Shown in pieces: positions 2,924 to 29,042 of a DNA stretch of 64,000 bases. Origin of the DNA: an uncultured delta proteobacterium (lineage in GTDB: Bacteria > Desulfobacterota > RBG-13-43-22); assembly GCA_963711835.1 (NCBI GenBank), contig CAVQFQ010000010.1, positions 96,001 to 160,000 of the forward strand. Direction: 5' to 3'. A model generated the notes under the pieces. That model was not told where the DNA came from. It saw nothing but the letters and a program-made list of their open reading frames with translations, and ran no database searches. How positions within the stretch are numbered: position 1 is the stretch's first letter; the number at the start of each line of letters is the position of its first letter. A program made the position numbers and the translations under genes.

Positions 2924-2962
2924 AAAACCCCGGACACCCAAAAAAGGTCTAAAATAAAAAGG

Positions 2963-2991
2963 TTGACAAAAATTTATTTTTAGGCTAACTT
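2963..2991 (+). promoter_or_regulatory. putative sigma70 promoter of NlpC/P60 gene
   Basis: TTGACA-17bp-TAACTT in AT-rich intergenic region. Confidence 0.5.
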
Positions 2992-3045
2992 CTAATTTCC
3001 TTTTCCCTGGGAGTCAAATTTTCTGCCGGAAAGGAAATCAGACCT

Positions 3046-3909: not shown

Positions 3910-3941
3910 CCCCACCTTCATTTTTTTCCAACTCGTCATCA

Positions 3942-4985: not shown

Positions 4986-5018
4986 TATGAGATGGCCCAG
5001 AGACGGTAAAAGATGACG

Positions 5019-5100
5019 AGGAAACGCGGCGAAACGATGAATCGGAAGATCAAGATGGGCTGATCTTACCGTTTCCCCGGATCCCCGCGTCTCCTCGTTC
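5019..5100. repeat. short-unit imperfect inverted repeat between kinase and thiolase genes
   Basis: gacgaggaaacgcggcgaaacg... mirrored by ...ccgtttccccggatccccgcgtctcctcg. Confidence 0.4.
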
Positions 5101-5124
5101 GGTTTGTTTCAGGGCCCCTGTCTG

Positions 5125-7916: not shown

Positions 7917-7926
7917 TATGGCTCTG

Positions 7927-8198
7927 TCAGGGTTCAGCGGCCAGCTTCCGGAAGCCGGGGATGCAATCGTCATCGGCCAGGGAGTTCTGAAGGGGAGAAA
8001 TCCGTCCGGAAGCCTGCACATAGGCAATGCCGGTAATCACCAGACCGACGCCGCCGCGGGCCAGCTCTTCCACCATCTGGATTTGTTTCGAGGAGACCTG
8101 CCCGTTTCTTCCGCCAGGCCGTCATAGGTGGCGGATCTGACAAAACGGTTTCGCAGGGCCAGGTTCTTTATTGAAATCGGATCAAATAAGGTGCTCAT
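7927..8198 (-). pseudogene. truncated NADH:flavin oxidoreductase (Old Yellow Enzyme family) N-terminal fragment
   Basis: MSTLFDPISIKNLALRNRFVRSATYDGLA then a 1-base frameshift into ELARGGVGLVITGIAYV...DDCIPGFRKLA*; only ~90 codons remain. Confidence 0.8.
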
Positions 8199-8213
8199 AA
8201 AAAATGCCTTTCT

Positions 8214-9536: not shown

Positions 9537-9602
9537 GAAGAAAAAGGGATCCTCTGTGGTTCAGTTGATTTCAGAAATGCACGGCAGGCAACGGGATGTG
9601 AT

Positions 9603-10736
9603 TCAGGGGGTTCGTTTCCTGTCCGTCTCTTCCAGCAACCGGTTAATAAATACAGTGGTATTGTAAATTTCAAAGTTCTGCTTGCGAAATTTGGAATACC
9701 GGGATTTGGCGTTGGAAAGATTATGGACACAGGAATTGCATTCCGTGAGGATCACCTCGGCGCCTGTTTCGACCGCTTCCTCTAATCGGCGCCGGGCCAT
9801 GACGATCGAATTGGAGGGGAAAGCACCCCGGACTCCTCCGCCGGCCCCGCAGCAAAGGGCCTCCGCCCGATTGTGCCGCATCTCCATAAAATGGGGGGCG
9901 ATTTTTCGGATGGTCTGCCGAGGTTCTTCATAAATTCCCGAATGTCTTCCCAGATCGCACGGGTCGTGGTAGGTGACTTTTTTCTCCGTTCTCACCCCCA
10001 GGTCGAAATCCTTGAGGAACTGACTGATATGGATCACCCGGACCCCCTGATCCTGTAAGGGGGCGTATTGGGGTTTCGAGGTGAAAGTCCGGAAACAATA
10101 AGGGCACCCGGTGATGACGGTCTTGGCCCCCTGACGGAGAATGGCCTCCAGGTTACCCTGGACCAGCCCCTGGTTCATGGAATAGCCCACATCTTCCAAG
10201 ATCCCGCTGCAGCAGACCTCGTCGATCAGGGTATAGTCTGCCTGCAGCCGGTCGAGCAGGTTCAACGTTTCCAGGGTGGATTCCATTTCCCGATAGGAAC
10301 CCACGCAGCCGATAAAATAGATTAGTTCGGCCTTCCGGTTTCTTTCCCGCTTCAAGTCCGCCGGCTGTTCTTCTCCATAGATGTTGGTGAACTTCTGCAG
10401 CACCTCGTTCATGCCTTTGAAGGCCGGGTGGCAGGAGCCGATATGGACCATCTCTTTTCTAACCGCCTTGATGATCTCCGGGACCTTTACCCCGGATGGG
10501 CAGCTCTGGGTGCAACTGGCGCAGGTGGTACACTGGAAGAGGGTTTCAATGAGTTCGTCGCCGAGGTCCAGCCGGCCGTCCATGACTTCTTTCAGGAGGA
10601 GCATCTTTCCCCTGGCGTTGAGGGCCGGCCGCAGAGTGGCTCCGAAAGCGGGGCAGACGGCCTGGCAATAGCCGCAGCGGGAGCATTTCAGGATCTGTTC
10701 CCGGTACGTTCTGGCAAAATCATACTTGGCTTCCAT
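9603..10736 (-). CDS. GlcF/HdrD-like (Fe-S)-binding protein with two CCG domains
   Basis: two CxxCxxCxxxCP motifs, CCSG, GCPYC, YHDPCDLGR, CCGAGGG. Confidence 0.9.
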   Translation of the reverse strand: MEAKYDFARTYREQILKCSRCGYCQAVCPAFGATLRPALNARGKMLLLKEVMDGRLDLGDELIETLFQCTTCASCTQSCPSGVKVPEIIKAVRKEMVHIGSCHPAFKGMNEVLQKFTNIYGEEQPADLKRERNRKAELIYFIGCVGSYREMESTLETLNLLDRLQADYTLIDEVCCSGILEDVGYSMNQGLVQGNLEAILRQGAKTVITGCPYCFRTFTSKPQYAPLQDQGVRVIHISQFLKDFDLGVRTEKKVTYHDPCDLGRHSGIYEEPRQTIRKIAPHFMEMRHNRAEALCCGAGGGVRGAFPSNSIVMARRRLEEAVETGAEVILTECNSCVHNLSNAKSRYSKFRKQNFEIYNTTVFINRLLEETDRKRTP

Positions 10737-10737
10737 A

Positions 10738-12118
10738 TTAGAACTCCAAAGACATCTTTCCCGGATTGAGGATATTATTCGGATCAAATAGTTTTTTTAA
10801 AGAGAGCATATACTCCAGGGCCACGGGGTCATGCTCCAGGGGCATGAAAGCGGCTTTCGACAAACCGATGCCGTGTTCGCCGGTCAGGGTCCCTTCCAGA
10901 GCGATGGCCAGTTGAAAGAGTTCTTCAATGGCTTCCTTGACCCGACGGACCTGATCCGGATCATAGCCGTCGTAGAGGATCTGAGGATGAAGGTTGCCGT
11001 CCCCGGCATGGCCGAAGGTGGCGATCTGCAGGTCATGCCGGAGGGCAATGGCTTCTATGCCCTTGAGCATTTCAGCCACCTTGGACATAGGGAACGGTTA
11101 TATCCTCCAGGACGAAGTGGGTTTTGATCCGGGCCAAGACGCCGTAAGCCGATTTGCGGGCCTCCCAAAGCCGGGCGGCTGCTTCAGCCGAATCGGCCTG
11201 CTTTATATCCTGGGCCTGGTTTTCCCTGAAGACCTGGAGAATCTTGTTCATCTGATAAGCCGTTTCCTCCCGGGTATAACCATCGGTCTCAGTCAAAAGT
11301 ATGGCCTCCACTTCAGGGAGATTGAGTTGGGTATTTTGGTTGATGGCCTGGATGGTCTGCCGGCCCAGGATTTCGAGGACGCTGGGCACAATCCCGCTGA
11401 CCATGATCCGGCTGACCGCTCGGCCGGCATCCTCCAGATCCTTGAAGGTGGCCATGGCCGTGGAGGTGACCGTCGGCTTGGGATTGATTTTGAGGATAAT
11501 CTCGGTCACTACTCCCAGGGTTCCCTCGGAACCCACAAAGAGTTTGGTCAGGTCATAGCCGGAAACGCTTTTCATGGTTTTGGAACCGGTCCTCATCATC
11601 CGGCCGTCGGGCAAGACGACCTGCAGGCCAAGCACATAATCCCGGGTGGTGCCGTACTTGGCCCCCTTAATCCCCCCGGCATTGGTAGCCACATTGCCGC
11701 CCAGGGTGCAGACCTTGGCGCTGCCCGGGTCAGGGGGGAAGAAAAAGCCGTGAGGGGCCAAGGCCCGATCCAGGTCGGCATAGACCACCCCGGGCTGAAC
11801 GATGGCCAGGCGGTCCTCAATGCTTATTTCAAGGATCTGATTCATATGATTCAGATCCAGGACAATACCCCCTTTGATCGGAACGGCCATACCGGAAAGT
11901 CCCGTCCCCGCTCCTCTGGGGACCAGCGGGATTTTTTCCCGGTTGGCCAGCTTCAGGATCTGAGAAACCTCTTCGACCGACTCGGCCCAGACCGCACAGT
12001 CCGGACGATAATGATGTTCCGAGGCATCATAGGAGTAGGAAACCAGGTCGATCAGGCTGTCGGTATAGCGTTTTCCGCCTACGATGGCGATCAAGTCTTT
12101 TTTAATGTTTTCATCCAT
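10738..12118 (-). CDS. FAD-linked oxidase, GlcD/D-lactate dehydrogenase-like; frameshift near 11090
   Basis: PRGAGTG, PDPGS, TNAGG, GSEGTLG, GHAGDGNLH, GEHGIG, ILNPGK; the two ORFs join on removing one C at GTT CCC TATG. Confidence 0.88.
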
Positions 12119-12218
12119 GTAGTGCTCCCGAGCTGAGCTTTTCAATCTGAAAAATACTCCTTGATTTTTAACACAAAGTTACCTGGTTGTTAATGAAAAA
12201 AAGGCCAGCCCATTAGCC

Positions 12219-12247
12219 TTGACTTGTAGCCTATTCCGGCCTATATT
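12219..12247 (+). promoter_or_regulatory. putative sigma70 promoter of DUF362 gene
   Basis: TTGACT-17bp-TATATT. Confidence 0.6.
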
Positions 12248-12301
12248 TTTAACATGTTTGTATAAGCATTAACAGGCCGTATAAAGTAATAAGGAGGAAT
12301 T

Positions 12302-13627
12302 ATGGCTAAGGCAAAAATTTGGTTTATGGATGCCCGGGCGAAACGATTTTTGGAGTCCACAGCCATCAAAGGACGACAAATCGTGGAATACTCCGGTTGG
12401 TTGGATAACCTGCAAAAAGGGGACATTGTGGCCGTCAAGACCCACATGGGAGAGGCCTATAATGTGGGCTACCTGCGGCCCATCATCCTGCGAACCCTGG
12501 TGGAAGCCCTCAAGGCCAAAGGCTGCCGACCCTTTGTCACCGATACCACGACCATGCCCTATCATCCCTGGATCAGCCGCACCCTGGCCCTGGATCATTT
12601 GGAGACCGCCAATCGCAACGGTTTTAACCAGGGCACCATGGATTGCCCGGTCCTGATTGCCGACGGCTGGCTGGGGACCGATGATATTACCGTGGATTTA
12701 CAGGGCCGGGGAAATTATCTTAACAAGCAGTTCGTGGCCCGGGCTATTGCCGATGCCGATGCCGTTCTATCGGTCGCCCATTTCAAGGGCCATCCTGCCG
12801 GCGGTTTTGGGGGGGCGCTTAAGAATATCGGGGTAGGCTGCGCCAGCAAGCGGGGCAAAATGAACCTCCACGGGGCACTGGCCGGCGACAAGCCGGTTAT
12901 AGACCTTGCTCTCTGTCCTGGAAAAGAGTGTGACTGGTGGGAGACCTGCCAGGACTGCTGCCCGGAAGGGGCCATTCAGTTTACCGAAAAAGGGATTGAG
13001 ATCGATCAGGAGGCCTGTGTCTATTGTTTCGCCTGTGCCAACCTCTGTGTCAATATGGCCGGCGTAAAGGGGATCCAGCGTTTCGATCATTTGCCGGCCC
13101 TGGGCCGGAGAATCGCCGACTCGGCCCTGGCCATGATGATGACCAAAGAGGAGGGCAAGGTCTTCTTTTTAAACTTTGCCATGGATATCACCCCGGTCTG
13201 TGATTGCTATGGCTGGACCGATACGCCGATTGTCAACGGACTGGGTATCCTGGCTTCCTATGATCCGGTGGCCGTGGATAAGGCCTGTATCGATATGATG
13301 AACCAGGCCCCGGGGCTCATTAATTCCGAGGCCGAAGAGTTCGGCGCCCTGGAGCCCGGCTCTAAAAAACTGAACATCATCAAGGGCAAGGACATCGAAC
13401 CCCAGATCTACGGAGGGGTGGCCAATGGCCTGGGGTCCACCGACTACGAGATCGAAACGGTTCCCCAGGACCGGAGCCAGGAGGCCATCAATCAGTTTTA
13501 TCCGGAAGTACGGGCCCGAAAGCTGAAAGCCATGTATGCTAAAAATCACCCTTTAAGAGGCTTGGATACGGCCTCTTTCGGCAAGATCACCGAAGGGGTG
13601 ACCAATCCGAGGCATCCGAAAAAATAG
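12302..13627 (+). CDS. DUF362 family Fe-S protein with ferredoxin domain
   Basis: VAVKTHMGE, HFKGH, GGALKNIGVGCAS, CxxCCP/CxxCxxC ferredoxin insert, CDC, DPVAVDKA. Confidence 0.88.
   Translation: MAKAKIWFMDARAKRFLESTAIKGRQIVEYSGWLDNLQKGDIVAVKTHMGEAYNVGYLRPIILRTLVEALKAKGCRPFVTDTTTMPYHPWISRTLALDHLETANRNGFNQGTMDCPVLIADGWLGTDDITVDLQGRGNYLNKQFVARAIADADAVLSVAHFKGHPAGGFGGALKNIGVGCASKRGKMNLHGALAGDKPVIDLALCPGKECDWWETCQDCCPEGAIQFTEKGIEIDQEACVYCFACANLCVNMAGVKGIQRFDHLPALGRRIADSALAMMMTKEEGKVFFLNFAMDITPVCDCYGWTDTPIVNGLGILASYDPVAVDKACIDMMNQAPGLINSEAEEFGALEPGSKKLNIIKGKDIEPQIYGGVANGLGSTDYEIETVPQDRSQEAINQFYPEVRARKLKAMYAKNHPLRGLDTASFGKITEGVTNPRHPKK
13555..13627 (+). repeat. direct repeat copy 1: last 73 bp of DUF362 gene
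   Basis: matches 18243-18315 with 3 mismatches. Confidence 0.95.
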
Positions 13628-14008: not shown

Positions 14009-16206
<2,198 letters not shown>

Positions 16207-16263
16207 AATGTTTCCTCCTTTCGTTGTGTGAACTGTTGAACAGTGCCACTATGAATAATAGTG

Positions 16264-16303
16264 TAGTTTCCATCCGGAAATTTGAATTTCCGGACGGAAA
16301 CTA
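16264..16303. repeat. 40-bp near-perfect palindrome between perR and katG
   Basis: TAGTTTCCATCCGGAAAT-TTGA-ATTTCCGGACGGAAACTA. Confidence 0.75.
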
Positions 16304-16367
16304 ATCAAGTATTTTCGGAACCTGCCTTTTTAAATGAAACAGTCCGCTTCAAGTGTAAAGGACTACT

Positions 16368-16832
16368 TTACTTATTTTTCTTCTGACATTCCGGACAAAG
16401 ACCGAAAAAATCCAGGCGATGGTGCAGGATCTGGAAGCCGGTTTTCCGGCCCATTTCCTGGTTAAGGTCGCTGAGACCGGCCCATTTCGGGTCGACGATT
16501 TTTTTACAACGTATGCAGATGATATGCGGATGGGGAAAGGGTTTGTACCCGTCATAGCGGTTGCTTCCGTCCGGAAAACCCAGTTCCAAAACTTCATTGA
16601 GTTCCTTGAGCAGAATAATCGTCTTATATACAGTAGCCAGACTGGTTGTGGGAAAATCGGCCCTGACCCGCTCATAGACCTGGGCCACGCTCGGGTGCGT
16701 TTCATCCCGGGATAGGATTTTCAAGACCGCCAATCGTTGGGGGGTAAGGCGGAAATTTTTCTCCTTCACCCTGGAAAGCATAGTTTCCAGGCGATTGCCG
16801 TTTTCCCAGGAGGTGTCAGTGGATCTGGCCAT
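16368..16832 (-). CDS. perR: Fur-family regulator, PerR-like
   Basis: RLTPQR, HPS, SLATVYKT, HPHIICIRC, CPEC; directly upstream of katG. Confidence 0.8.
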   Translation of the reverse strand: MARSTDTSWENGNRLETMLSRVKEKNFRLTPQRLAVLKILSRDETHPSVAQVYERVRADFPTTSLATVYKTIILLKELNEVLELGFPDGSNRYDGYKPFPHPHIICIRCKKIVDPKWAGLSDLNQEMGRKTGFQILHHRLDFFGLCPECQKKNK

Positions 16833-16861
16833 GGTTAATATGACTAAAAAAATTATTTATG

Positions 16862-16911
16862 GAGAATTATTATTTCTAAAGATATATTATCAGAAAGGGG
16901 CCGGTTGTCAA
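16862..16911 (-). promoter_or_regulatory. putative perR promoter with Fur/Per-box-like AT-rich operator
   Basis: minus strand TTGACA-16bp-TAATAT followed by TTAGAAATAATAATTCT. Confidence 0.45.
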
Positions 16912-17219
16912 GAAAAATTATTTCAACCAGTGACTGTATCTCGCCGTCCTTCAAAAGGGCCTGGGTATGGACATCTCCGGATGCCTGGGGTTGTATGATC
17001 TGTCTTTAGGCAGATTTAATAAGATTTTGGGAAATACCAAAAAGGGTCCTACTCGGGGAACAGGCATCAAGGCAATGAAAACACTTAAACCCAAGTACAA
17101 TCTATGCATGAAAACCTACCGGAAAGAGAATCTCAGCACCTCGAAGTGAGAAAGTGGGCGATTTGTTAGCGGCCACATGTCAGACATATTCCAAACTCGA
17201 TCCGATCAAGACATCTGCT

Positions 17220-17924
17220 TCACCGGTTCGACTGGAAGCGTTCTTCCTTCCATGGATCGGCGGAGTTACTGTAACCTTGCCTTTCCCAGAATCCGGGCTC
17301 ATCGCGAGAGGTGACTTTGACAGCCTCCAGCCACTTGGCACTCTTGTAGAAGTAGCGATCGGGGATCACGACACGCACGGGGGCGCCGTGCGCCTGTTGC
17401 AGTTTCTTACCAAAGAAACTGTGCGCAAGGATCACGTTCCCCTTTTGAGTTTCGCTTATGGGAACATTGCTGGTGTAGCCTCCGGCGGCCTCAAAAATGA
17501 CAAAACCTCCACTTCTGCGAGGCCTGACTCTATCCATGATTGTTGTCAGGCGAACGCCACTCCAGCGGGAATCCAGAAGAGTCCAGCCGGTGACACAGTG
17601 AATATCACAGGTGATATGCACCTGGTCCAGGTTGAGCAGCTCCTGGTAGGAAAGGACGACCGGTCTTTCCACCTCACCATGGACGCGCAGGCTCCAGTTC
17701 GCAACAGTAGCGGTTCCAGGCGTGCCGCCCATATCCTGAATCTTTTCGACCGCCTGCTGCCCGGGGGGGAGACGGGGCCTGCCGTCCGGTCTGGTGTTGG
17801 CTGCCAGAGCACGTTGCTCCGCATCCGCGAGTTTTACGAAAGCTCCAGGCAACCCTATGCTCACTATGGTTCCGCCTGCTGCGGCCAGGAAGGTGCGCCT
17901 GGAGATCTTCTGGTCTTTTTGCAT
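17220..17924 (-). CDS. Tat-exported sulfite-oxidase-family molybdopterin oxidoreductase (MsrP/YedY-like)
   Basis: SRRTFL twin-arginine signal, RLPPGQ, DIHCVTGW (Mo-ligating Cys), HGAPVR, YKSAKW, GFWE. Confidence 0.85.
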   Translation of the reverse strand: MQKDQKISRRTFLAAAGGTIVSIGLPGAFVKLADAEQRALAANTRPDGRPRLPPGQQAVEKIQDMGGTPGTATVANWSLRVHGEVERPVVLSYQELLNLDQVHITCDIHCVTGWTLLDSRWSGVRLTTIMDRVRPRRSGGFVIFEAAGGYTSNVPISETQKGNVILAHSFFGKKLQQAHGAPVRVVIPDRYFYKSAKWLEAVKVTSRDEPGFWERQGYSNSADPWKEERFQSNR

Positions 17925-18242
17925 TGCCCCTCCTTTGTCAGTTGAGTGGGTCCTTGCCCCCTCGGATCAGCCAGAGCATCCGGGGTGATAGTTAAAATGG
18001 GGACGCTGGTAAGAAAGTAAGAAATTCATGGTTAACTCCAACTGATTCTCCTGAGCGATGTCCCTGCCTCCCTGGCAGCCCAATAGCAAAGAAATTTGTA
18101 GGAGGAATAGGGCCGCTGTTAGGTTATTAACTTTTCAACAGATGGAAACCCTTTTATCTCTGCGGCATCTTTCTCCAATACCACCCCTGACTCATCTCGT
18201 TCAACCTAATAACCTGACAGCGTCCCCTTTCTCTGTAACTTC

Positions 18243-18315
18243 AAGAGGCTTGGATACGGCCTCTTTCGGCAAGATCACCGAAGGGGTGAGCAATCCGAGG
18301 CATCCGAAGAAATAA
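18243..18315 (+). repeat. direct repeat copy 2: orphan 3' end of DUF362 gene
   Basis: encodes RGLDTASFGKITEGVSNPRHPKK*, near identical to 13555-13627. Confidence 0.95.
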
Positions 18316-18388: not shown

Positions 18389-19021
18389 TCACCCGATCAT
18401 CTCTTCGTACAATCCCCGTTTATCAATGATCCGGCGGGCCTTGAACTGGGTCCGTTCCAGGCTGCCGGGCGGCAAGGTCTGAACCAGGACCCGAACCCCC
18501 AGGACTTTCTTCAAGGCCTCGGCCAATCTCAGCTTTAAGGTCGCCGCCTGATGCTCTTCCAGGCCCAGGGCCATTTCGACCTGGACCACCAGCTCATCCA
18601 TGGTTTTTTCCCGGGCAATGATGATCCGGTATTCTTCCCCGCAGCCGGCCTGGGCCCGGATGATGTCCTCGATTGCGCTGGGATAAACGTTTTCTCCCCG
18701 GATGGTGAACATATCATCGGACCGGCCGTAAATCCCTCTCGGAAGCCGGGGGTAGGTCCGGCCGCAGGGGCAAGGATCATTGACCCAGGTCGTCAGGTCA
18801 CCGGACCAGAAACGAATCATGGGCTGAGAATCCCTTTCCAGATGGGTATAGACGAGCACCCCCTGTTCACCATAAGGGACCGGCCGTTTGGTTTCCTGAT
18901 CGACCACTTCCGTATAGACCAGATCCTGCCAGAGATGCATCCCGCGCCGCTCCCCGCATTCACTATTGGACATCCAGGGGGTCATTTCAGCCGTGGAGCC
19001 GGAATCAACACAAACGCCTCC
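18389..19021 (-). pseudogene. orphan 3' ~630 bp duplicate of the PaaK-like CoA ligase gene
   Basis: aligns with 20015-20639 at roughly 95% identity (manual count); 5' half absent. Confidence 0.9.
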
Positions 19022-19175
19022 GTTTGAGGGGACGTTGGTGCAACCGTTGCTTCGTTTAGATAACTATCCTTGGCTTTTCGACATTGATCGAGAATGTCCT
19101 TGGCTCAGATATTCAACACGCAACTGATAACATAGCCGTTTTTTACCTATTTCCAATATGTTCCAGACACTCTGC

Positions 19176-19233
19176 TCGGAACCGTATAACTCAGCGGTGG
19201 GTACCAGTCATCCTCTGGTTTTTTTTGTTGGCC
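19176..19233 (-). mobile_element. degenerate attC site (58 bp) overlapping end of DUF2442 gene
   Basis: GGCCAAC-aaaaa-AAACCAGA-ggatgactggtacccacc-GCTGAGT-tatacg-GTTCCGA; same length and spacing as the attC at 13899-13956. Confidence 0.55.
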
Positions 19234-19526
19234 AATGTTTCGACCTTATTGAATCTTGTATCACGACTAAAAGGTCGTGGTGCGGGAATACCAAAAAGCA
19301 TACCTTCAGCACTGATATCCTCATCTATATCAGGCCAATGTACCCCATGACCATCTCCTATAATTCTATAATTGGAGCGTTGCTTAGGTGTTGCATCGGA
19401 CAATCGCCAAGACCACGCAAGCGGGACACTTATTATCCGACCATCAACAAGTTGAGCCGTAATTGTGTCTTTGCTGACTTTTATATCCTTAATTTTTTCT
19501 TCTTGTATTTTCACCACAGTGCTCAT
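19191..19526 (-). CDS. DUF2442 protein, putative antitoxin
   Basis: LVDGRIISVPLAWSWRL...GVHWPDIDEDIS motif; low GC. Confidence 0.85.
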   Translation of the reverse strand: MSTVVKIQEEKIKDIKVSKDTITAQLVDGRIISVPLAWSWRLSDATPKQRSNYRIIGDGHGVHWPDIDEDISAEGMLFGIPAPRPFSRDTRFNKVETLANKKNQRMTGTHR

Positions 19527-19746
19527 ACCACGCCTCCATTATCTTGTCTTTGTTGTTTTTAATTATTCCTCGTATGGTATTGAGTTCTTTTGGAGAAAAA
19601 CCATAATTTTTTACCAATACAACAGGCTCCAGCCAGAATTTGCAGATCATCTTCTCTCTTTGAGTATGCACATGCATTTGCTCATTACAATCAAAGCTGA
19701 AGAAGAAAAAGCGATAGGGTCCTCTGATTTTCTTGACCGTTGGCAT
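19489..19746 (-). CDS. DUF4160 protein, putative toxin
   Basis: MPTV...YRFFFFS...HVH...KFWL...AWYEH motif; overlaps DUF2442 gene. Confidence 0.85.
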   Translation of the reverse strand: MPTVKKIRGPYRFFFFSFDCNEQMHVHTQREKMICKFWLEPVVLVKNYGFSPKELNTIRGIIKNNKDKIMEAWYEHCGENTRRKN

Positions 19747-20000
19747 ATCGTTCCCTATTTAAGCATATACGATCATCGGGCAATCATTCCTGCAGACCCT
19801 CACTTCGAAGAACCCCTTTTTCATTCCTTTTTATCATAAAGTCAATAATATTCAAATTATTTTCATTGGTTAGCGTTTGAAATCTGGCATGGCAAGAGAA
19901 AATTTAAAACAAGGCTTCAAGGAAAATTATTCGCGCAACCTGACGTCATTTGAATTTAAAATTACCCAGTAGTTACCCAAAACGCGACATCCATCACCGG

Positions 20001-21412
20001 TCACTTCTTTCCTACCATCTCTTCGTACAATCCCCGTTTATCAATGATCCGGCGGGCCTTGAACTGGGTCCGTTCCAGGCTGCCGGGCGGCAAGGTCTGA
20101 ACCAGGACCCGGACTCCCAGGACTTTCTTCAAGGCCTCGGCCAATTTCTTCTTTAAGGTCGCCTCCTGATGATCTTCCATGCCCAGGGCCGTTTCGACCT
20201 GAACCACCAGCTCATCCATGGTTTTTTCCCGGGTAATGATGATCCGGTATTCTTCCCCGCAGCCGGCCTGAGCCCGGATGATGTCCTCAATAGCGCTGGG
20301 ATAAACGTTTTCTCCCCGGATGGTGAACATATCATCGGACCGGCCGTAAATCCCTCTCGGAAGCCGGGGGTAAGTACGGCCACAGGGACAAGGGTCATTG
20401 ACCCAGGTCGTCAGGTCACCGGACCAGAAACGAATCATGGGCTGAGAATCTCTTTCCAGATGGGTATAGACGAGCACCCCCTGTTTACCATAAGGGACCG
20501 GCTTTTTGGTCTCCGGATCGACCACTTCCGTATAGACCAGATCCTGCCAGAGATGCATGCCCTGACGCTCCCCGCATTCACTATTGGACATCCAGGGGGT
20601 CATTTCAGCCGTGGAGCCGGAATCAATACAAATGCCTCCATAGCTCTTTTCAATAAGTCGCTTGGTGGAGGGAATGCCCGCACCCGGTTCTCCGGAGAAA
20701 AAAAGGATTCGAAAGGCAAAATCTTTTTTGGGGTCCAAGCCGAGGGTCCGGGCCCTTTCGGCTAAGTAGAGGCTGTAGGAAGGAGTGCCGTAAAAAACAG
20801 AGGGCTTCATCTGCCGGATCCAGTCGATGGCCCGTTCGGTCTGACCCGGAACTCCGGCGCCGAAAGGGAAACAGACCGCACCCAGGCGTTCCCCTCCGGC
20901 CAAGGCCCCCCAACTGCCCATATATAAGCTGAAAAAGGAGCCGATAAAAAGGATGTCGTTCGGCCGGACCCCGAAACTCCACATGATCCGGGCGTGGGCC
21001 TCGGCAATCCGGGTCATGTCTCCCCGGCTGATACCGAAGGCCGTTGGACGACCGGTGGTTCCGGAGGTGCCATGAAGCCGTTGAATATCAACGATGGGAA
21101 CACAGCTATAACTGCCGAAAGGGAGGATGTCTCAGCCTGATCCTCGCGGATTTCTTCTTTGTACAAAAAGGGGATCCTCTCAAAATCGCTCAAAGAACGG
21201 ATATTCTGTGGATGAACTCCGGCCTTGTTCCACTTTGCGCGATACAAGGGGGCCTTTTCATAGGCATGGGTCAGTTGGGCTCTGAGTTTGGGCAGGATGA
21301 TCTTTTCCGATCGCTCCTGCGGGTCCATGGTCTCTATATCCCGGTTCCAGTAGGGATCAGAGGGGGATGGATAGTAATGAGGATTATGTTCTGGGGGCCA
21401 TAAGAGGGTCAT
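20001..21412 (-). CDS. phenylacetate-CoA-ligase (PaaK)-family acyl-CoA ligase; frameshift near 21120-21135
   Basis: HGTSGTTGRPT, GTPSY, SGEPG, IRFWSGD, GRSDDM, GENVYPS motifs across the two joined ORFs. Confidence 0.88.
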
Positions 21413-21441
21413 GAAAAACCTCCATCTTAAAAAAGTTTGAG

Positions 21442-21846
21442 CTATGGAACCAACGAGCGCCTGGCGGCTTCCTGGATTTCCTGCACAATGGTCTTCATCG
21501 GTGTATCCGGACCGTAGATTTTTTCAATGCCTTGTTCCAATAGATAGGGGATGTCCCGCTCGGGGATGATCCCGCCCAGGAAGACCTTGACGTCTCTGAG
21601 CCCTTTATCCCTCAATAAACGGACCACCTTCGGAGCCAGGACACGATGGTTTCCGCAGAGGGTGCTTAACCCGACCAGATCGACATCTTCCTGCAGGGCG
21701 GCCTGGGCAATCTGTTCCGGAAATTGATTGCCTAAATAAATGACCTCCATCCCGGCTTCCCGCAGGAACTGGGCTACCGTTACCGCCCCGCGCCAGTGGA
21801 TATCCAGGCCCAACTTGGTGATGAGAACGCGTATTTTTCTTTCCAT
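21442..21846 (-). CDS. cobalamin-binding small subunit of acyl-CoA mutase
   Basis: KLGLDIHWRG (DxHxxG), GLSTL, FLGG motifs. Confidence 0.92.
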   Translation of the reverse strand: MERKIRVLITKLGLDIHWRGAVTVAQFLREAGMEVIYLGNQFPEQIAQAALQEDVDLVGLSTLCGNHRVLAPKVVRLLRDKGLRDVKVFLGGIIPERDIPYLLEQGIEKIYGPDTPMKTIVQEIQEAARRSLVP

Positions 21847-22054
21847 TATTTGTCCTTCATAAATACAGATCATCTCGGAGACTACTTGTCAGTGATCTCT
21901 GGAATGGCTTTCCAATGGACGTTGAATCTAGCTTTGAGCAGCCTGGAATCCAGTCTGAACTTTAATTCACTGGATTCCGGCTTCTGGGGAATAGACTGCT
22001 GCTTTAATGACATTGTAAAGACGTGTCTGAGACTTTTTGTTTTTATCCAGTTCT

Positions 22055-23762
22055 TCAAGTAATAAGCGGTGAATGCCAGAGGCCGAATTCATTCCGGAAA
22101 AGTTCCGAGATTTCGCCCAGGGTGGCCAGGGACTTGACGGCCTCCAGGGTGTAGGGGTAGAGATTTTCCTTGGAATGGCATTTGCCTCTGAGATGGTCAA
22201 GGGCCTTAGTGATTTTTCCGGAATCTCTTTCCCGACGCAATCGTTCCAGTTTAACCCTTTGACGGGATTCGGTCTCCGGATACTCAAAGACCTCTATGGG
22301 CTGGGATGGAGCCGGAACCCTGGAAGGCATTGACCCCCACCACCTTGATCTCCCCGCTTTCAATTTTTCGCTGATAGTCGAATTGGTAAGAGGCGATTTC
22401 CCGATGCAGCCAACCCTTCTCGGCCGCCGCAACAATCCCTCCCTGGTCTTCAATTCTCCGGATATAGGCCTCGATACGTTTTTCCAGTTCGGCGGTCAGA
22501 TATTCCAGATAGTAAGAACCGGCCAGCGGATCAACCGTCTGGGTCACCCCGGTTTCCTGCTGGATGATCTGCTGAGTTCTTAGGGAGACCAGGGCAGCCG
22601 TTTCCGTAGGGGCCGAATAGGCCTCGTCAAAGGAATCGATGTGCAGGGACTGGGCCCCTCCAAAAACAGCCGCCAGGCCCTGGAGAGCGGATCGGGCAAT
22701 ATTGTTCAGAGGCTCGGTGGCCGGCAAGGTAATCCCGGCGGTCTGAACATGGAAACGCATCAGCCAGGATTTCGGGTCTTTGGCTTTAAAGCGTTCCCTC
22801 ATGATCCGGTACCAGATCTTCCGGGAGGCCCGGCATTTAGCCACTTCTTCGAAGAAGTCGTTATGAAGATCCCAGAAAAAGGAAATCCGGGGGGCAAAGC
22901 CGTCAATCTCCCGGCCTCTGCTCAGCAACTCCTCGGCGGTAGCGACGGCATTGGCGATGGCGATGGCCACCTCGGCCACGGCATCGGTGCCGGCCTCCCT
23001 CAGATTATAGCCGTTCAAGCTGATAGGATTCCAGCGGGGCAGATATCGGGTGATCCAGTCCACCACATCGCATTGCATCCGGAAGGAAACGGCCGGAGGG
23101 AGCATTTCAGGAGCACTTCCGATGACCGTCTCCATGAGAAAGTCGTTCTGGCAGGTGCCGGATAAGCGGGTATAGGGGATGCCCCGCGCCTCGGCCAGGG
23201 CAAAGTACATCCCCGGGATAATCAGGCTGGTACTGGGAAGGTGGGTAACGATGGAAGTGCTGATACCGGCCAGGTCAATCCCGGAAAAAAAGGCCTCCAT
23301 ATCCGGAAGGGAATCCACGGCCGCCCCGCATTGACCGACATTGCCTTCCGCTTCCGGATCATCGGAATCATAGCCCCGGATGGTGGGCAGATCAAAGAGG
23401 ATGCTCACCCCGGTGGCCCCGTGATCCAGGAGATATTTAACCCGCAGATTGCAGTCTTCCGGGGCCCCTAAGCCGGCTAACTGCCGGATGGTAAAGGGTC
23501 GGCCCTGATACATGGTGGGATAAATTCCCCTGACAAAGGGGGGCGCCCCGGGGAATCCCGAATCCTGCAAATAATCCAATTCCTGGATGTCCAGTGGCGT
23601 GTGGAGGAGCTTGACCGGAATCCCTGAAGAAGTGATGTGAACGGCCTCCTCTTTCTTTTCTTCCGACTTAAGCTTTTTCTTGTGCCATTCCTGGTAATGG
23701 GTCCGGATCTCTTGAATCTGCGCTTCATTAAAAAGGAGGTTTTTAGGCTGGTTGTCTTTCAT
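22055..23762 (-). CDS. methylmalonyl-CoA-mutase-family large (substrate-binding) subunit, divergent; frameshift near 22305
   Basis: PFVRGIYPTMY, RQLAG, FDLPT, QND, EAG, EEVAKCRA, RTQQI, DPLAGSYY, ATLGEI. Confidence 0.9.
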
Positions 23763-23856
23763 CTCTTTTTCCTTTGTCCGGCGATAAAGAAAAAAGCCCC
23801 CTTTCCGGTGAAGGAGAAGAGGGCCGGGAGCGGACTTATGATTTTTTTTGACCCGG

Positions 23857-25344
23857 CTAAACCCCTAAAAGCCTCTGGGAAAGTTCCTGGTCGGAAAGGA
23901 GTTCCTGCGGGGTGCCTTCGTAAACAATCTGCCCTTGATCGATGACATAAACCCGATCCGCCAAGGCCAAAGCCATGAGGGCATTTTGTTCTACCAGGAG
24001 AATAGTAACCCCGGCTTTATTGATTTCCAGGATGATCTCGGCTACCTGGCGGACGATGAGCGGGGCCAACCCCTGGGAGGGTTCATCGAGCAACATGCAG
24101 CTCACCTTCCCCATGAGGGCCCGGGCTAAGGCCAGCATCTGTTGTTCTCCTCCTGAGAGACGGTTGCCTTTATGATGGCTGCGGTCTTTCATGGCCGGGA
24201 AATATTCGTAGGCCTGGTCCAATTGGTCCCGCTTCTCCTGAGCCGGGATGCCTTTTAAGAAAAAGGGCAATTCCAGGTTTTCATGAAGGGTGAGATTCTG
24301 GAAGATACGGCGCTCGGCCGGCACCAGCGACAGGCCGCTTTTGACGATCCTGTTGGTCGGCTTGCCGTTGATGGTTTCATTATTAAAAGTGATGACTCCC
24401 GCCCGGGGCGGAGTCAGGCCCAGGATGGAGCGGAGGGTGGTGGTCTTACCGGCCCCGTTTCTGCCTAACAGGGAGACGATTTCCCCTTGACGAACCATTA
24501 AGGAGATATCCTGCAGGACGTGGCTTTCTCCATAATAGGTGTTGACCTTTTCCAGTCGCAGGATCTCCCTTTTGGTGCTTTTGGCTCGCTCGCTTTTTTT
24601 CTGGGATAAGGAGAATCCTTTTTCCATTCCTCCCAGATAAGCCTTCTGGACCTCTTCATTCTGTTGAATTTCTTCCGGAGTCCCCTCGGCCAGTTTCCGG
24701 CCGAAATACAAAACGGTTATGGCGTCTGAAACCTTCAGCACCACATCCATTTTATGTTCGATGAGAATGATGGTATAGCCTTTTTCGTTTTTTAATTTAT
24801 TGATCAGTTCGACGGTTCGTAACGATTCCTCCGGAGGCAGGCCGGAGGTGGGTTCATCCAGAAGGAGCAATTCGGCCTTGCAGGTCAGGGCAATGGCAAT
24901 ATCCAGATGGCGCTGGTCCCCGTGGGAAAGATTTCCAGCCACCTCATTGGTCTTGTCGGCCAGACCGACATCCTCCAGGATCTCCATGACTCGGTCCCGG
25001 GCTTTCGAGCCCTTGTGGTAATACATGGCCGGAATAAGGACATTCTCAAAAACCGTAAGTTCCGGGAAGATGGCGGTAATCTGAAAAGAGCGTCCGATGC
25101 CTTTCCGGGCTATCTTATGGGGTCTAAGGCCGGTAATGTCTTCCCCTTTAAAGCGGATCCGTCCTTTACTGGGGGGATGGACACCGGTGAGGAGGTTGAA
25201 AAAAGTGGTCTTGCCCGCTCCATTGGGTCCGATAATGGATCGGAGTTCCCCTGGGTTGATGGAAAAATTGATATCCTGGACCGCTTCCAAGGAACCAAAA
25301 TTTATTCCCAGCTCCGTTGTTTCCAGTAATTTCATATAGGCCAT
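23857..25344 (-). CDS. fused LivG-LivF-type ABC ATPase (two nucleotide-binding domains)
   Basis: GPNGAGKT/LSHG/LLLDEPT plus GRNGAGKT/LSGGEQQM/LLDEPS in one 495-aa ORF. Confidence 0.92.
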   Translation of the reverse strand: MAYMKLLETTELGINFGSLEAVQDINFSINPGELRSIIGPNGAGKTTFFNLLTGVHPPSKGRIRFKGEDITGLRPHKIARKGIGRSFQITAIFPELTVFENVLIPAMYYHKGSKARDRVMEILEDVGLADKTNEVAGNLSHGDQRHLDIAIALTCKAELLLLDEPTSGLPPEESLRTVELINKLKNEKGYTIILIEHKMDVVLKVSDAITVLYFGRKLAEGTPEEIQQNEEVQKAYLGGMEKGFSLSQKKSERAKSTKREILRLEKVNTYYGESHVLQDISLMVRQGEIVSLLGRNGAGKTTTLRSILGLTPPRAGVITFNNETINGKPTNRIVKSGLSLVPAERRIFQNLTLHENLELPFFLKGIPAQEKRDQLDQAYEYFPAMKDRSHHKGNRLSGGEQQMLALARALMGKVSCMLLDEPSQGLAPLIVRQVAEIILEINKAGVTILLVEQNALMALALADRVYVIDQGQIVYEGTPQELLSDQELSQRLLGV

Positions 25345-25419
25345 CCTTCATAAGACCGGCTTTCCTCAGTTGCGCAAGATATGGTTCCAGGAGGAAACCC
25401 GTTTAATTATTTTAAAGAA

Positions 25420-26382
25420 CTAACGCTTTTTCTGGACAAATCCCCAAATCCCTCTTGGGAAGAAGAGGATAAAAATGATGAAGATCGCCCCGACGAAGAA
25501 TTGCCAGTATTTCGTATAATAGGAGATGAAATTCATCAGATAAGTAACCACTCCGGCTCCCAAAATAGGGCCAAAAAGGGTTCCCAAACCACCCACCAGT
25601 CCCATAATGACCACGTTTCCCGACCGAACCCAGTCCAGGGTCTGGGGGAAGATATAACGGAGGAACATACCATAAAGGGTGCCGGCTACAGCGGCAAAAA
25701 CCCCCGAAATAATAAAAGAGTATAGTTTGTAACGCCGTACATTATAACCTACAACCTGGGCCCGTTTTTCATTTTCCCGGATTGTTTTCAGGACCTGGCC
25801 GAAATGAGACTCGACCAGCCAGTATTTAACCAGAGTAGCGGCCACAAAGAAAACAAAGACAAAATAAAAGAAACTCAGATCATTTTTTAGATTCCAGTTA
25901 AAAAGACCCAGCGAGATGCTATCCCTTGGAATCCCGGTCAGGCCATCCTCCCCTCCGGTAACCGTCTTCCAGCGGGAGGCAATAAAAAAGAACATCTGCC
26001 CAAAGGCTATGGTGAGCATGGCAAAATAAATGCCGGTCTTGCGTATAATGAGGAGCCCGATGATGACAGCGCCCAGGGTACCTACCAGAATCCCAATCAG
26101 CATGCCCAGGAGAATGGACACTTTAAAATTGATGCAGACAATACCCATGGTATAGGCAGCCAGCCCGAAATAAGCGGCCTGGCCGAAGGAGAGTATGCCG
26201 GTGTAGCCCAGGAGTAAATCAAAACCCAGGGCGAAGATGGCAAAAATAACCATCTCAGTGGCCAAGCCGGTATAGCCGCCGATAAAGGGGATGATTTTAG
26301 GCCAAACCGCCACCAGGGCGAAAAGGATGACCATTTTTATTAAGTCTTTGGATCTCGATTTTTCAACAGGTGTTGTTGTCAT
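25420..26382 (-). CDS. LivM-type ABC permease
   Basis: GYTGILSFGQAAYFG, IYFAMLT, TGGEDG, IRENE, GGLGTLFGP. Confidence 0.92.
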   Translation of the reverse strand: MTTTPVEKSRSKDLIKMVILFALVAVWPKIIPFIGGYTGLATEMVIFAIFALGFDLLLGYTGILSFGQAAYFGLAAYTMGIVCINFKVSILLGMLIGILVGTLGAVIIGLLIIRKTGIYFAMLTIAFGQMFFFIASRWKTVTGGEDGLTGIPRDSISLGLFNWNLKNDLSFFYFVFVFFVAATLVKYWLVESHFGQVLKTIRENEKRAQVVGYNVRRYKLYSFIISGVFAAVAGTLYGMFLRYIFPQTLDWVRSGNVVIMGLVGGLGTLFGPILGAGVVTYLMNFISYYTKYWQFFVGAIFIIFILFFPRGIWGFVQKKR

Positions 26383-27272
26383 TCCAATAACCCTTCAACC
26401 CCGGCGATACCTCTCGGGCGGACTAATAATACGATCGCCATCAGAATAAAGACGATGACATCCGACATGGCCGAAAAAACCTCCACGGAAAAACTGACGA
26501 CTACCCCGACCAGTAAACCTCCGATGACTGCGCCCCAGAAACTGCCCATGCCCCCGATGATAACCACTACGAAGCAGGACATAATGATGCCGGTTCCCAT
26601 AGGCGGATAGACACCTTGAATAGGGGCATTAAGGACCCCGGCCACAGCCGCCAGGGCCGATCCGATCCCAAAGGTGATGGTAAAAAGAAGATTGATGGGA
26701 ATGCCCAGGGCAATCACCATTTCCCGGTCAAAGGTCCCGGCCAGGATGGTTTTCCCCATGGGGGTTTTTTGAAAGAAAAACCAGAGAGCAACCAGCAGGG
26801 CGGAGCAAAAAACAATGATAAACAAACGGTATTTGGAAAATATGAAGAGCTTTAAGTCAATGATGCCGCTGAGAAATTCAGGAGGACTCATGGGATAGGG
26901 GGCATCCCCCCAGGTCATACGAATCATATCCTCAATCATCAGGGCCAGCCCGAAGGTCAGGAGCATGGTGTGCAACGGGTCCCTTTTGTAAAGGGGCCTG
27001 ATTAAGGTGGCCTCCATTCCCATGCCGATCAGTCCCAGAAGAATGGGCCCGATGATCAGGCAGGGCCAGAAACCGGTATAGTTAAATAAGGTAACGACGC
27101 TATAGGCCCCCAAGGCGTATATAACCCCGTGGGTAAAGTTTATGACCCGCATCAGCCCGAGGATGATGGTCAGTCCAATGGCCATCAGAACTAAGAGGGT
27201 GCCCAGGGCAAAGCCGTTGAGCAATTGGTTCATAATTGTGGGCAGGGAGAGATTCAAACTTATCATAGCCAC
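26379..27272 (-). CDS. LivH-type ABC permease
   Basis: GLTIILGLMRVINFTHG, VIIGGMGS, RPRG. Confidence 0.92.
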   Translation of the reverse strand: MAMISLNLSLPTIMNQLLNGFALGTLLVLMAIGLTIILGLMRVINFTHGVIYALGAYSVVTLFNYTGFWPCLIIGPILLGLIGMGMEATLIRPLYKRDPLHTMLLTFGLALMIEDMIRMTWGDAPYPMSPPEFLSGIIDLKLFIFSKYRLFIIVFCSALLVALWFFFQKTPMGKTILAGTFDREMVIALGIPINLLFTITFGIGSALAAVAGVLNAPIQGVYPPMGTGIIMSCFVVVIIGGMGSFWGAVIGGLLVGVVVSFSVEVFSAMSDVIVFILMAIVLLVRPRGIAGVEGLLE

Positions 27273-27337
27273 CCCGGCAGTCAGGTCGGCAGCAGAGAAG
27301 AGGGACTTCTCTGCTGCCTTGGATGAAGGATTAATTT

Positions 27338-28669
27338 TTATTTGAACAGGTCATAGGGTTCCAGTTCGTGACCGCCCTCTTTCTTCCATTCGTCGAATGA
27401 AGGGGCGCACTCGTCACCCGGGACATGGCCCAGGATCTTGAAGAGATCGGCCCAGGTCTTGAAGTTGGCCGGGTATTGGGCCTGGGCCACAATGACATCC
27501 TGGATGTTTTGATGATCGAAGTTGCGCCAGTAGCTGGGGGTCCATTTCAAACCGTCAAATTTCCAGCCTTCCAGGGCCTTAATCACCGGAATCATATCCG
27601 TGGTCTTGGCCCGGGTGATGGCCTCAAAGAGCTGTTGGTGGGTAATGTATCCCAAATAATGACGGTAGGAGGCGTCCCATTGAGGGGGTTTATTGGCTCC
27701 AAAACGCTTCCGCAAGGCCGCCCGCAATTTCTGGCTGCCCGGGGTATCCACCGTACAATCCCAGGAAAGCCCCCAAACCCCGTCGGCCGCCGCCCCGACT
27801 CCTTTCATCATGGGTGATCCGGAAAGGGGACCGCAGAGGTGAATGTCTTTGGCCAGGCCGAATTCCTTGAACTGCTTGACCAGGTTGACCTGATCGGCTC
27901 CATAACAGTTACAGCTTAATAAATCAGGCTTAAGGCCCCGGGCCTTGATCAGGTTGGCTGAGAAGTCCTTGGTTCCCAGAGGGGTAAAGTCATTACCGAT
28001 CTCCTTGCAGCCGTATTTGGTTAAGGCACGGTTCATGGAGGTCCGGGCCGTATGCCCCCAGGTGTAGTCGGCGGTGATGTGATAAACTGATTTGGGTTTC
28101 CAGTTTTTTCCCAGCCAGGCCCCTACGGCCGTAGAAAGCATCCAGTTTTGTGAGGTGGTCCGGAAGGTGGTCCGGTGGGATTTCTGCATGGTGGTGTCAT
28201 CGGAATGACTGCCGAAGGCCATAAAAAGCTTTTTCTCTTTAAAGGCTTCTTCGGCAATAGCCAGGGTGACACTGGAGGTCAGGGTCCCGGTCAAGAAATG
28301 GACATTGTCCCTTTTAATCAACTTAATCGTCTTCTGAACCCCGATGCCCGGATTACTGGGGGCGTCTTCGGTGATCATTTTAATTTCCCGGCCGAGTACC
28401 CCGCCTTTGGCATTCCATTCCTCATTGGCCAGCATGGCCCCTTCCATCTCATCTTGACCGGAATCGGCATAGGGCCCTGATATCGGTTCAATATTGCCGA
28501 TCAGGATAGGCGGTCCCGAAAAGGCTTTGAGGTGCGGTGCACTCAAAAACTCCGACAACTGGAAGGCCGTAAGCCCGGCCGCCACCACACCGGTGCGGGC
28601 CAGGAATTGACGTCTGGTCAATCCGGAATGGGTTCCCATTTCTCCATCTTTTTTCTTTTCGTCTTTCAT
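27338..28669 (-). CDS. Tat-exported Leu/Ile/Val-type ABC substrate-binding protein
   Basis: TRRQFL twin-arginine signal; SGPYA, NAKGGVLGREI, DYTWG, DFS motifs; RBS before ATG at 28669. Confidence 0.88.
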   Translation of the reverse strand: MKDEKKKDGEMGTHSGLTRRQFLARTGVVAAGLTAFQLSEFLSAPHLKAFSGPPILIGNIEPISGPYADSGQDEMEGAMLANEEWNAKGGVLGREIKMITEDAPSNPGIGVQKTIKLIKRDNVHFLTGTLTSSVTLAIAEEAFKEKKLFMAFGSHSDDTTMQKSHRTTFRTTSQNWMLSTAVGAWLGKNWKPKSVYHITADYTWGHTARTSMNRALTKYGCKEIGNDFTPLGTKDFSANLIKARGLKPDLLSCNCYGADQVNLVKQFKEFGLAKDIHLCGPLSGSPMMKGVGAAADGVWGLSWDCTVDTPGSQKLRAALRKRFGANKPPQWDASYRHYLGYITHQQLFEAITRAKTTDMIPVIKALEGWKFDGLKWTPSYWRNFDHQNIQDVIVAQAQYPANFKTWADLFKILGHVPGDECAPSFDEWKKEGGHELEPYDLFK

Positions 28670-29042
28670 AAACCCCCCTCTGAAGTATTTTAGGTTGACT
28701 TTATTGCTCGGAACAAACGCGGGATAACTTTGAAAAGACACCCCCTTCCTTTATTTTAGGTGACGTTATAAGGATTCATACTTGGATTGTTAGAGAAATT
28801 AATAATTGGGCTATTGGAAGTGTATCCCTGGTTAAAGGGAGGATCCGTTGTCTTAGGTAAGGAGAATAAGAGGGTTGATTCCGTTTTCGTTCTCGCCTGG
28901 GCCACTGGAATTCCTTATCTTGAACCATGGTCACTGAAACCGGTTTGATTGAAGAAAAAGATTGCCCTCTTCCCGAAAAAAAATTGGGGGGAGGTTTAAA
29001 AATAGGGTTTGCGGTCTTAGGTTAAGATGTTAATGATGGTTT

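Follow-up and report, generated by a model that had tools for sequence, protein, structure and literature searches.

The window analysed here is a stretch of 64,000 nucleotides from the genome of an uncultured delta proteobacterium of the Desulfobacterota (GenBank assembly GCA_963711835.1, contig CAVQFQ010000010.1, positions 96,001 to 160,000 of the forward strand). Positions 20001-28741 hold a run of seven genes, all on the minus strand, which encode the binding protein, two permeases and fused ATPase of an ATP-binding cassette (ABC) importer, the large and small subunits of a B12-dependent acyl-CoA mutase and a ligase of the PaaK family. From the relationships of the encoded proteins, we suggest that importer, HCL-type ligase and RcmAB-like mutase together probably serve the anaerobic use of free 2-hydroxyisobutyrate or of a close tertiary 2-hydroxy acid. 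What is directly supported is the set of genes, the assignment of their products to families, the pocket signature that the mutase has in common with its relatives and the likeness of the ligase to HCL. The original prediction, made from the letters of the window alone, had listed the same genes in the same order and had read them as an uptake-activation-rearrangement cluster, and the Pfam and NCBIfam assignments of the importer, ligase and mutase bear this out.

The large subunit of the mutase (22058..23762, minus strand) belongs to PF01642 (MM_CoA_mutase; E-value 1.7e-157) and matches TIGR00641 with 523.2 bits (cut-off 303.8), which places it among the two-subunit adenosylcobalamin-dependent acyl-CoA mutases. 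The small subunit (21442..21873, minus strand) has the adenosylcobalamin-binding domain PF02310 (E-value 6.6e-23), exceeds the cut-off of TIGR00640 (128.9 bits against 57.45) and retains an intact cofactor motif, DIHWRG (DxHxxG), at residue 24. The best match of the large subunit in the PDB is HcmA (PDB identifier 4r3u; E-value 3.5e-124), followed by a group of methylmalonyl-CoA mutases (MCM) with E-values of about 1e-104 to 1e-97. The motifs FTIRQLAG, QNDFLMETVIGS and NGYNLREAG, quoted in the original prediction, are found in the translated open reading frame (ORF), and the key residues are Leu95 (codon TTA, 23478-23480), Leu122, Gly215 (23118-23120) and Asn253 (23004-23006). In the PDB alignments, Leu95 lies opposite the Tyr of the wild-type MCM chains 8gju and 2xij (human) and 6oxc and opposite the Ile of HcmA, and the fifth chain aligned, MCM chain 5req, has a Phe at this site. 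Leu122 is aligned with Asp117 of HcmA (4r3u), Gly215 with the carboxylate-binding Arg of MCM in FMVRNT, and Asn253 with the His of the GYH motif of both MCM and HcmA, which reproduces the exchanges of Arg for Gly and of His for Asn proposed earlier by manual alignment.

Identity as an MCM is rejected, as the original prediction also held, by the replacement of Tyr89/Arg207/His244 (P. shermanii numbering) with Leu/Gly/Asn and by a score of 450.9 bits with NF006944 against an equivalog cut-off of 876. Isobutyryl-CoA mutases (IcmA/IcmF) are recognized by a Phe at the first site and a Gln in place of the MCM Arg. Their Phe/Gln/His signature does not occur in the clade of the window mutase, and NF045497, the IcmF model, gives 220.8 bits against a cut-off of 1500. 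Judged by its pocket residues and by these scores, the enzyme is thus neither an ordinary MCM nor an isobutyryl-CoA mutase. It also departs from the HcmAB-type mutase of Aquincola, marked by Ile90 and Asp117, in having Leu95 and Leu122, though HcmA is still its best solved relative. According to a reviewer comment in the peer-review file of PMC11599936, D117 of HcmA contacts the hydroxyl group of the substrate.

The residues that set the window mutase apart from these enzymes are the norm in its own family. Its 120 best homologues (68-97% identical, about 565-575 amino acids) stem chiefly from Desulfobacterales, Desulfobaccales and other Thermodesulfobacteriota, and RQLAG and NGYNLREAG are present in every one of them and QNDF[IL]MET..GS in nearly all. 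Among 79 genome loci, the 43 relatives at >=61% identity that passed a motif and length filter all have the Leu/Leu/Gly/Asn signature, and the region of HcmA Asp117 reads ILFD in the clade loci and IVLD in six of them. The next-nearest proteins, only 43-50% identical, keep GYH and have Phe/Gln-type signatures, most of them (L056, L058, L060-L077 and L082) the full Phe/Gln/His. In a quick maximum-likelihood tree of 71 rows (ORFs of >350 amino acids with two motif patterns, a filter that left out L010, L081, L052-L055, L078, L080 and L084-L087), the signature clade comprises 44 rows on a long stem with an SH-aLRT support of 100. A search of representative proteins returned relatives at most 60% identical to the mutase among its best 150, with Asn at the GYH site in few of them (P0125, from a Streptomyces, P0144 and the fragment P0223) and no match bearing the name Kyrpidia or Bacillus, and a protein-cluster atlas searched with the mutase gave generic mutase clusters only.

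The clade includes a biochemically studied system. Locus L033 is from Desulfosarcina cetonica JCM 12296 (contig BBCC01000052), with the gene order mutase large subunit, mutase small subunit, MeaB, short-chain dehydrogenase/reductase (SDR), metallo-beta-lactamase, HMG-CoA-lyase-like protein, thiolase and AMP-ligase. Since gene order and contig number fit the IMG tags published for the organism (Ga0122881_105217, 105216, 105214, 105210 and 10528), we identify L033 with the locus of Frey et al. 2021 (PMC7888143). That paper reports that acetone, butanone and pentanones induce the D. cetonica proteins, that extracts catalyse the B12-dependent isomerisation of 2-hydroxyisobutyryl-CoA, that the subunits are 85.5-85.6% identical to proteins of Desulfococcus biacutus, and that the activity of the D. 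biacutus orthologues was confirmed with heterologously produced enzymes. The D. biacutus mutase is called RcmAB-like, and the organism is said to be devoid of HCL, by Rohwerder et al. 2020 (PMC7176365). L033 has the motifs FTVRQLAG, ILFDLPT, QNDFIMETCVGS and NGYNLREAG, and it falls with the window mutase in the clade of support 100 and in the same signature class. Because L033 shares them, the residues that the original prediction termed non-canonical are the normal signature of a characterised kind of 2-hydroxyisobutyryl-CoA mutase and do not point to a new specificity. A further pointer comes from the Bacillus massiliosenegalensis enzyme, for which variants V92I, E102K and E137K are named (supplement 4, PMC11599936): at the numbers of V92, E102 and E137 the window protein has I92, E102 and E137, a hint from numbering only. 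Directly upstream of the acetone-induced mutase, L033 also encodes a molybdopterin oxidoreductase of 777 amino acids (3983-6316) and a fusion of acetyl-CoA hydrolase/transferase with GNAT of 638 amino acids (7823-9739).

The ligase (20001..21412, minus strand) lies in two frames, 21412..21131 and 21131..20001, and has the AMP-binding_C_2 domain of the PaaK family. Its in-frame part scores 462.6 bits against HCL, the 2-hydroxyisobutyryl-CoA synthetase (PDB identifier 6hdw), and 209.4 bits against PaaK (PDB identifier 2y27), and the corresponding values for the full-length orthologue of locus L050 are 546.9 and 260.7 bits. With the PaaK equivalog model the window protein reaches 212.3 bits, far under the cut-off of 646.3, and its adenylation P-loop TSGTTG is intact. 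It is therefore nearer to HCL than to PaaK, and the remark of the original prediction that 2-hydroxyisobutyrate clusters likewise use a PaaK-like ligase turns out to have been the right lead.

The rest of the genome fits such a route. It encodes a sulfite reductase (dsrA, 608.8 bits), and 3HCDH_N has nine matches over the cut-off in the genome, at least eight of them substantial, and a thiolase gene lies within the window itself. No orthologue of the thiamine pyrophosphate (TPP)-dependent enzyme of acetone degradation was found in the genome (best match 28-29% identical), nor one of the acetone-route SDR (best match 35-36% identical). A MeaB gene is missing from the window, as the original prediction had noted for the surroundings of the mutase, and the only match in the genome is on contig C25, beside another mutase. 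That mutase is intact and has the signature RMFAG / AFHMPT / AQK. Separate MCM-type genes with Tyr/Arg/His are present on contigs C4 and C15. As the genome has no acetone module, a route fed by the ligase fits, and the presence of dsrA, the lack of TPP-enzyme and SDR orthologues, the single MeaB and the 3HCDH_N matches make a ligase-fed route into ordinary beta-oxidation coherent. In such a route, the binding protein, exported by the twin-arginine translocation (Tat) system, would capture the acid, the permeases and the fused ATPase would import it, and the ligase would make 2-hydroxyisobutyryl-CoA at the expense of ATP. The mutase would then produce 3-hydroxybutyryl-CoA in a radical 1,2-rearrangement that shifts the thioester carbon, and from this product housekeeping 3-hydroxyacyl-CoA dehydrogenases and thiolases would form two acetyl-CoA. 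The single MeaB, encoded elsewhere, would have to act as the chaperone if one is needed.

The importer genes are of the HAAT/Liv type. The periplasmic binding protein (27338..28741, minus strand; Peripla_BP_6, E-value 2.9e-72) has a twin-arginine motif, TRRQFL, which begins its longest ORF's match to a Tat signal at residue 42, and its predicted ligand is 2-hydroxyisobutyrate or a close analogue. Upstream of the mutase genes follow a LivH/UrtB-like permease (26379..27272, minus strand; BPD_transp_2, E-value 2.3e-37), for which every NCBIfam match is under its cut-off, and a LivM/UrtC-like permease (25420..26382, minus strand; BPD_transp_2, E-value 2.4e-41). The fused double ATP-binding cassette (23857..25344, minus strand; ABC_tran in two stretches, E-value 1.8e-68, and BCA_ABC_TP_C) has LivG-LivF-like halves in one protein, similar in NCBIfam to UrtD/UrtE and LivG/LivF. 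The importer is common to only the three closest relatives of the window locus, L009, L010 and L050 (80-88% identical), whose binding proteins are 86-91% identical to that of the window in the same gene order. In these relatives the order is GntR, aldehyde dehydrogenase, binding protein, two permeases, ATPase, mutase, HCL, DUF362, GlcD-like oxidase and CCG/Fe-S protein, and their clusters also have no MeaB.

Several observations weigh against 2-hydroxyisobutyrate as the substrate of a working cluster in this organism. The binding protein has only generic relatives in the PDB, of at most 89 bits, and these give no clue to its ligand. The window mutase is only 68% identical to the D. cetonica large subunit, the sub-clade of the window, L009 and L050 is known from sequence and the assayed relatives lie outside it, and the description of the mutase as RcmAB-like rests on a published sentence and a chain of orthology. 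C4-C5 ketones induce the D. cetonica enzyme as well, such that the natural acid may be a homologue, and a local MeaB/MeaH, present in the published clusters, is lacking. Both catalytic genes are frame-broken in the assembly, and two broken genes in a cluster of seven exceed the estimated genome-wide rate of roughly 3-5% of genes; the long essential genes rpoB, rpoC, dnaE and ileS (4/4) are unbroken, which indicates that errors are not everywhere. Lastly, the locus is rearranged with respect to its closest relatives: their GntR and aldehyde dehydrogenase genes are absent beside the binding protein of the window, and a cassette has been inserted along with a second copy of the ligase end.

In one alternative reading the importer and ligase would take a longer tertiary 2-hydroxy acid, for example 2-hydroxy-2-methylbutyrate, and the mutase would rearrange it by the same chemistry to the matching 3-hydroxyacyl-CoA. 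Close to the pocket, the enzymes of the window sub-clade and those of the acetone type are not identical (FTI against FTV and FLMETVIG against FIMETCVG), and the binding protein has no assignable ligand. Yet these pocket differences are conservative and the ligase is very close to the ligase of 2-hydroxyisobutyrate, and we consider a longer acid unlikely. Close to the reading of the original prediction is a new specificity, in which the mutase would act on a bulky branched acid devoid of a hydroxyl group (pivalate-like, aryl-branched or other) after its activation by the PaaK-like ligase. This explanation would draw on a pocket devoid of Tyr/Arg/His and of the Ile/Asp of HcmA, with the small or apolar residues Leu, Leu and Gly, on the position of all assayed enzymes outside the exact sub-clade of the window, and on the fact that a pivalyl-CoA mutase reference was not among the sequences compared; a literature search for pivalyl-CoA mutase found no paper. 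Against it, the same pocket signature occurs throughout a family with demonstrated 2-hydroxyisobutyryl-CoA mutase activity (in all 120 homologues and 43 loci given above), the bit score of the ligase with HCL is over double that with PaaK, and the nearest tree neighbours with Phe/Gln/His signatures are only 43-50% identical. We regard this explanation as very improbable, and the pivalate-like or novel carboxylate of the original prediction is not supported.

Whether the cluster is functional in this genome is a separate matter, compatible with any of these substrates, and depends on how the frame breaks are read. The original prediction had flagged frameshifts in the mutase and the ligase as a possible sign of decay; they are real features of the assembly, one in each gene. 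In the mutase large subunit the main ORF (23762..22284) and a C-terminal piece in another frame (22453..22055) are separated by a single break near 22308-22320, and the intact 567-residue L050 mutase maps over its whole length onto two frames of the window, residues 9-484 falling in frame -1 and residues 465-567 in frame -2. The ligase is broken near 21120-21131, and the intact 469-residue L050 ligase likewise maps in full to two frames with residues 1-94 and 53-469. Decay, in which the breaks would be real and the pathway non-functional here, is supported by the two broken genes of the seven in the cluster against about 4 of 136 elsewhere in the sample, by the intact rpoB, rpoC, dnaE and ileS, and by the loss of GntR and aldehyde dehydrogenase with the gain of a DUF4160/DUF2442 cassette and a duplicated ligase end. 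Against decay, each gene has exactly one break and no further stops, and contigs of relatives 95-97% identical, from public sediment metagenomes, are in frame at both sites: a 96%-identical contig is without one base at 22311, which brings the mutase in frame, and the ligase is returned to frame in related contigs by the absence of two bases, at 21120 and 21131. Contigs of RNA run X13 are likewise 95-97% identical over parts of the ligase and mutase, though these are from relatives and an RNA library can hold DNA, and they are not taken as evidence of expression.

Other genes of the assembly are split too. Within the window, katG (14009-16079, minus strand) is split once by a frame shift into pieces of 169 and 559 amino acids, and a GlcD-like oxidase linked to flavin adenine dinucleotide (10738-12178, minus strand) once into pieces of 368 and 119 amino acids, with the break near 11085. 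Three of the genome's five mutase loci are interrupted, one at two places, and further split genes are found on contigs C7, C12 and C17. A survey with proteins of related loci as queries assessed 144 genes and flagged 12 as split, of which five were rejected as two adjacent ATPase genes matched by a fused query, leaving 7/139 genes split, four of the seven outside the 64 kb of the window. The assembly of the relative L010 is fragmented similarly, and the source strain was not found in any of the sequencing runs searched (best share of words 0.33), which likewise counts against decay. Because other genes of the assembly are split too and the relatives at 95-97% identity are in frame, sequencing or assembly error is likelier than decay; we are reasonably confident of error and regard decay as a real but minor possibility. 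The split mutase large-subunit genes elsewhere in the genome lie at C4:156943-158486 and C21:190164-191708, the latter in three pieces.

Downstream of the ligase, the locus has been rearranged. A partial duplicate of the ligase 3' end (18389..19063, minus strand) covers the C-terminal ~224 residues with AMP-binding_C_2 only, and blastn aligns 20016-20639 with 18398-19021 at 95.0% identity over 624 nucleotides without gaps. The ORF 18985..18389 was considered as a second ligase gene and rejected, being merely the duplicated 3' end, with a translation upstream that is unrelated to the ligase. Between the ligase and this fragment a pair of small genes is inserted (19191..19758, minus strand; DUF2442, E-value 3.6e-20, and DUF4160, E-value 8.3e-17), and over 19220-19771 the depth of metagenome contigs rises several-fold, which would be expected of a repeated or mobile cassette. 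Either a true insertion accompanied by duplication or a misassembly of mixed strains could account for the arrangement at 18389-19758. In the window, the genes for DUF362, the oxidase and the CCG protein, which adjoin the ligase in the relatives, are displaced by 6-10 kb (9603-13627), with katG and fur between. In L009 the corresponding flanks of the importer-mutase-ligase unit are at 2362-4756 (GntR and aldehyde dehydrogenase) and 14283-18312 (DUF362, oxidase and CCG). By analogy with MpdB/MpdC of aerobes, the flanking genes of the relatives might serve to form the acid by oxidation of a diol or an aldehyde.

In the 45 loci of the clade, MeaB follows the small subunit in 27, an HCL-like ligase is present in 19, an SDR in 15 and the large TPP enzyme of the acetone route in seven. 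The two earliest branches of the tree, formed by six Desulfarculaceae-type rows and by the window with L009 and L050, are ligase-linked and the acetone-type clusters are nested within the third, and ligase linkage is therefore the likely older state. The basal sub-clade (L045-L049 and L083; Desulfarculaceae and others) has IVLD instead of ILFD, an HCL-like ligase adjoining the mutase in six of six loci, and, in three of the six (L045, L048 and L049), Ile at the first site with RQIAG instead of RQLAG. The whole clade (L009-L051 and L083) has Asn for the GYH His and Leu for HcmA Asp117, though a member performs the reaction of HcmA, and a discussion of these replacements was not found in the accessible literature. 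Every solved acyl-CoA mutase that was aligned has the GYH His where the clade has Asn. We tentatively propose, as a conjecture that falls short of probable, that sulfate-reducing Desulfobacterota have a dedicated anaerobic route for free 2-hydroxyisobutyrate, made up of an ABC importer, HCL and an RcmAB-like mutase that has no chaperone of its own, that the ligase-linked form is the older one, that the acetone mutase was recruited from it, and that the clade-wide Asn is a distinct catalytic solution.

In the accessible literature, 2-hydroxyisobutyrate metabolism has so far been tied to few bacteria, several of them aerobic degraders of fuel oxygenates and none a sulfate reducer, and in sulfate reducers the mutase type is known only from acetone degradation, with one organism discussed there said to be without the ligase. 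Our literature search on anaerobic 2-hydroxyisobutyric acid, CoA ligase and mutase found no paper on a sulfate reducer with HCL. The pairing of an HCL-type ligase with the mutase in 19 of 45 Desulfobacterota loci suggests that anaerobic use of the free acid may be common in sediments, which bears on the fate of breakdown products of fuel oxygenates and isobutene in anoxic zones. If the proposal on the Asn is true, the Asn-based rearrangement is a distinct catalytic solution for which there is as yet no structure. One reaction appears to be served by two pockets, Ile/Asp/His in HcmA and Leu/Leu/Asn in the clade of the window, a caution that substrate specificity is not readable from two or three 'signature' residues. 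Of more modest interest are the spread of HCL-linked mutases in Desulfobacterota and the clade-wide replacement of the GYH His.

In comparison with known systems, the window cluster is best read as a pathway of known type that occurs here in a less common host, where an ABC importer accompanies it and a local chaperone does not. The mutase of the acetone pathway of D. biacutus and D. cetonica is of the same clade and has the same Leu/Leu/Gly/Asn pocket and two separate subunits. In the acetone pathway, however, a TPP enzyme forms the substrate from acetone, and MeaB and an SDR dehydrogenase are encoded in the cluster, whereas the window has an importer and an HCL-type ligase and is without the TPP enzyme, a matching SDR and a local MeaB. 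In published 2-hydroxyisobutyrate clusters, as described in the accessible literature, hcl shares its operon with hcmAB or rcmAB and meaH, and a GntR gene is often present; such clusters are known from Aquincola tertiaricarbonis, Methylibium petroleiphilum, Kyrpidia tusciae and Bacillus massiliosenegalensis. They resemble the window in joining a ligase and a two-subunit B12 mutase in one operon-like unit, and HcmA (4r3u) and HCL (6hdw) are the best solved relatives of the window proteins. They differ in the pocket, where Ile90, Asp117 and the GYH His of HcmA correspond to Leu, Leu and Asn, and in the chaperone gene of the canonical hcl-mutase-meaH operon, which the window cluster is without. 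None of the hosts listed is described as a sulfate reducer in the accessible texts, Aquincola and Methylibium being aerobic degraders of fuel oxygenates, and an ABC importer such as that of the window is not described for these clusters in the portions of the literature examined. With MCM (1req and 2xij) the window mutase shares the fold family and the cofactor domain but not the pocket triad, and with PaaK the ligase shares the family of small adenylate-forming ligases and the AMP-binding_C_2 domain, HCL being much the closer relative.

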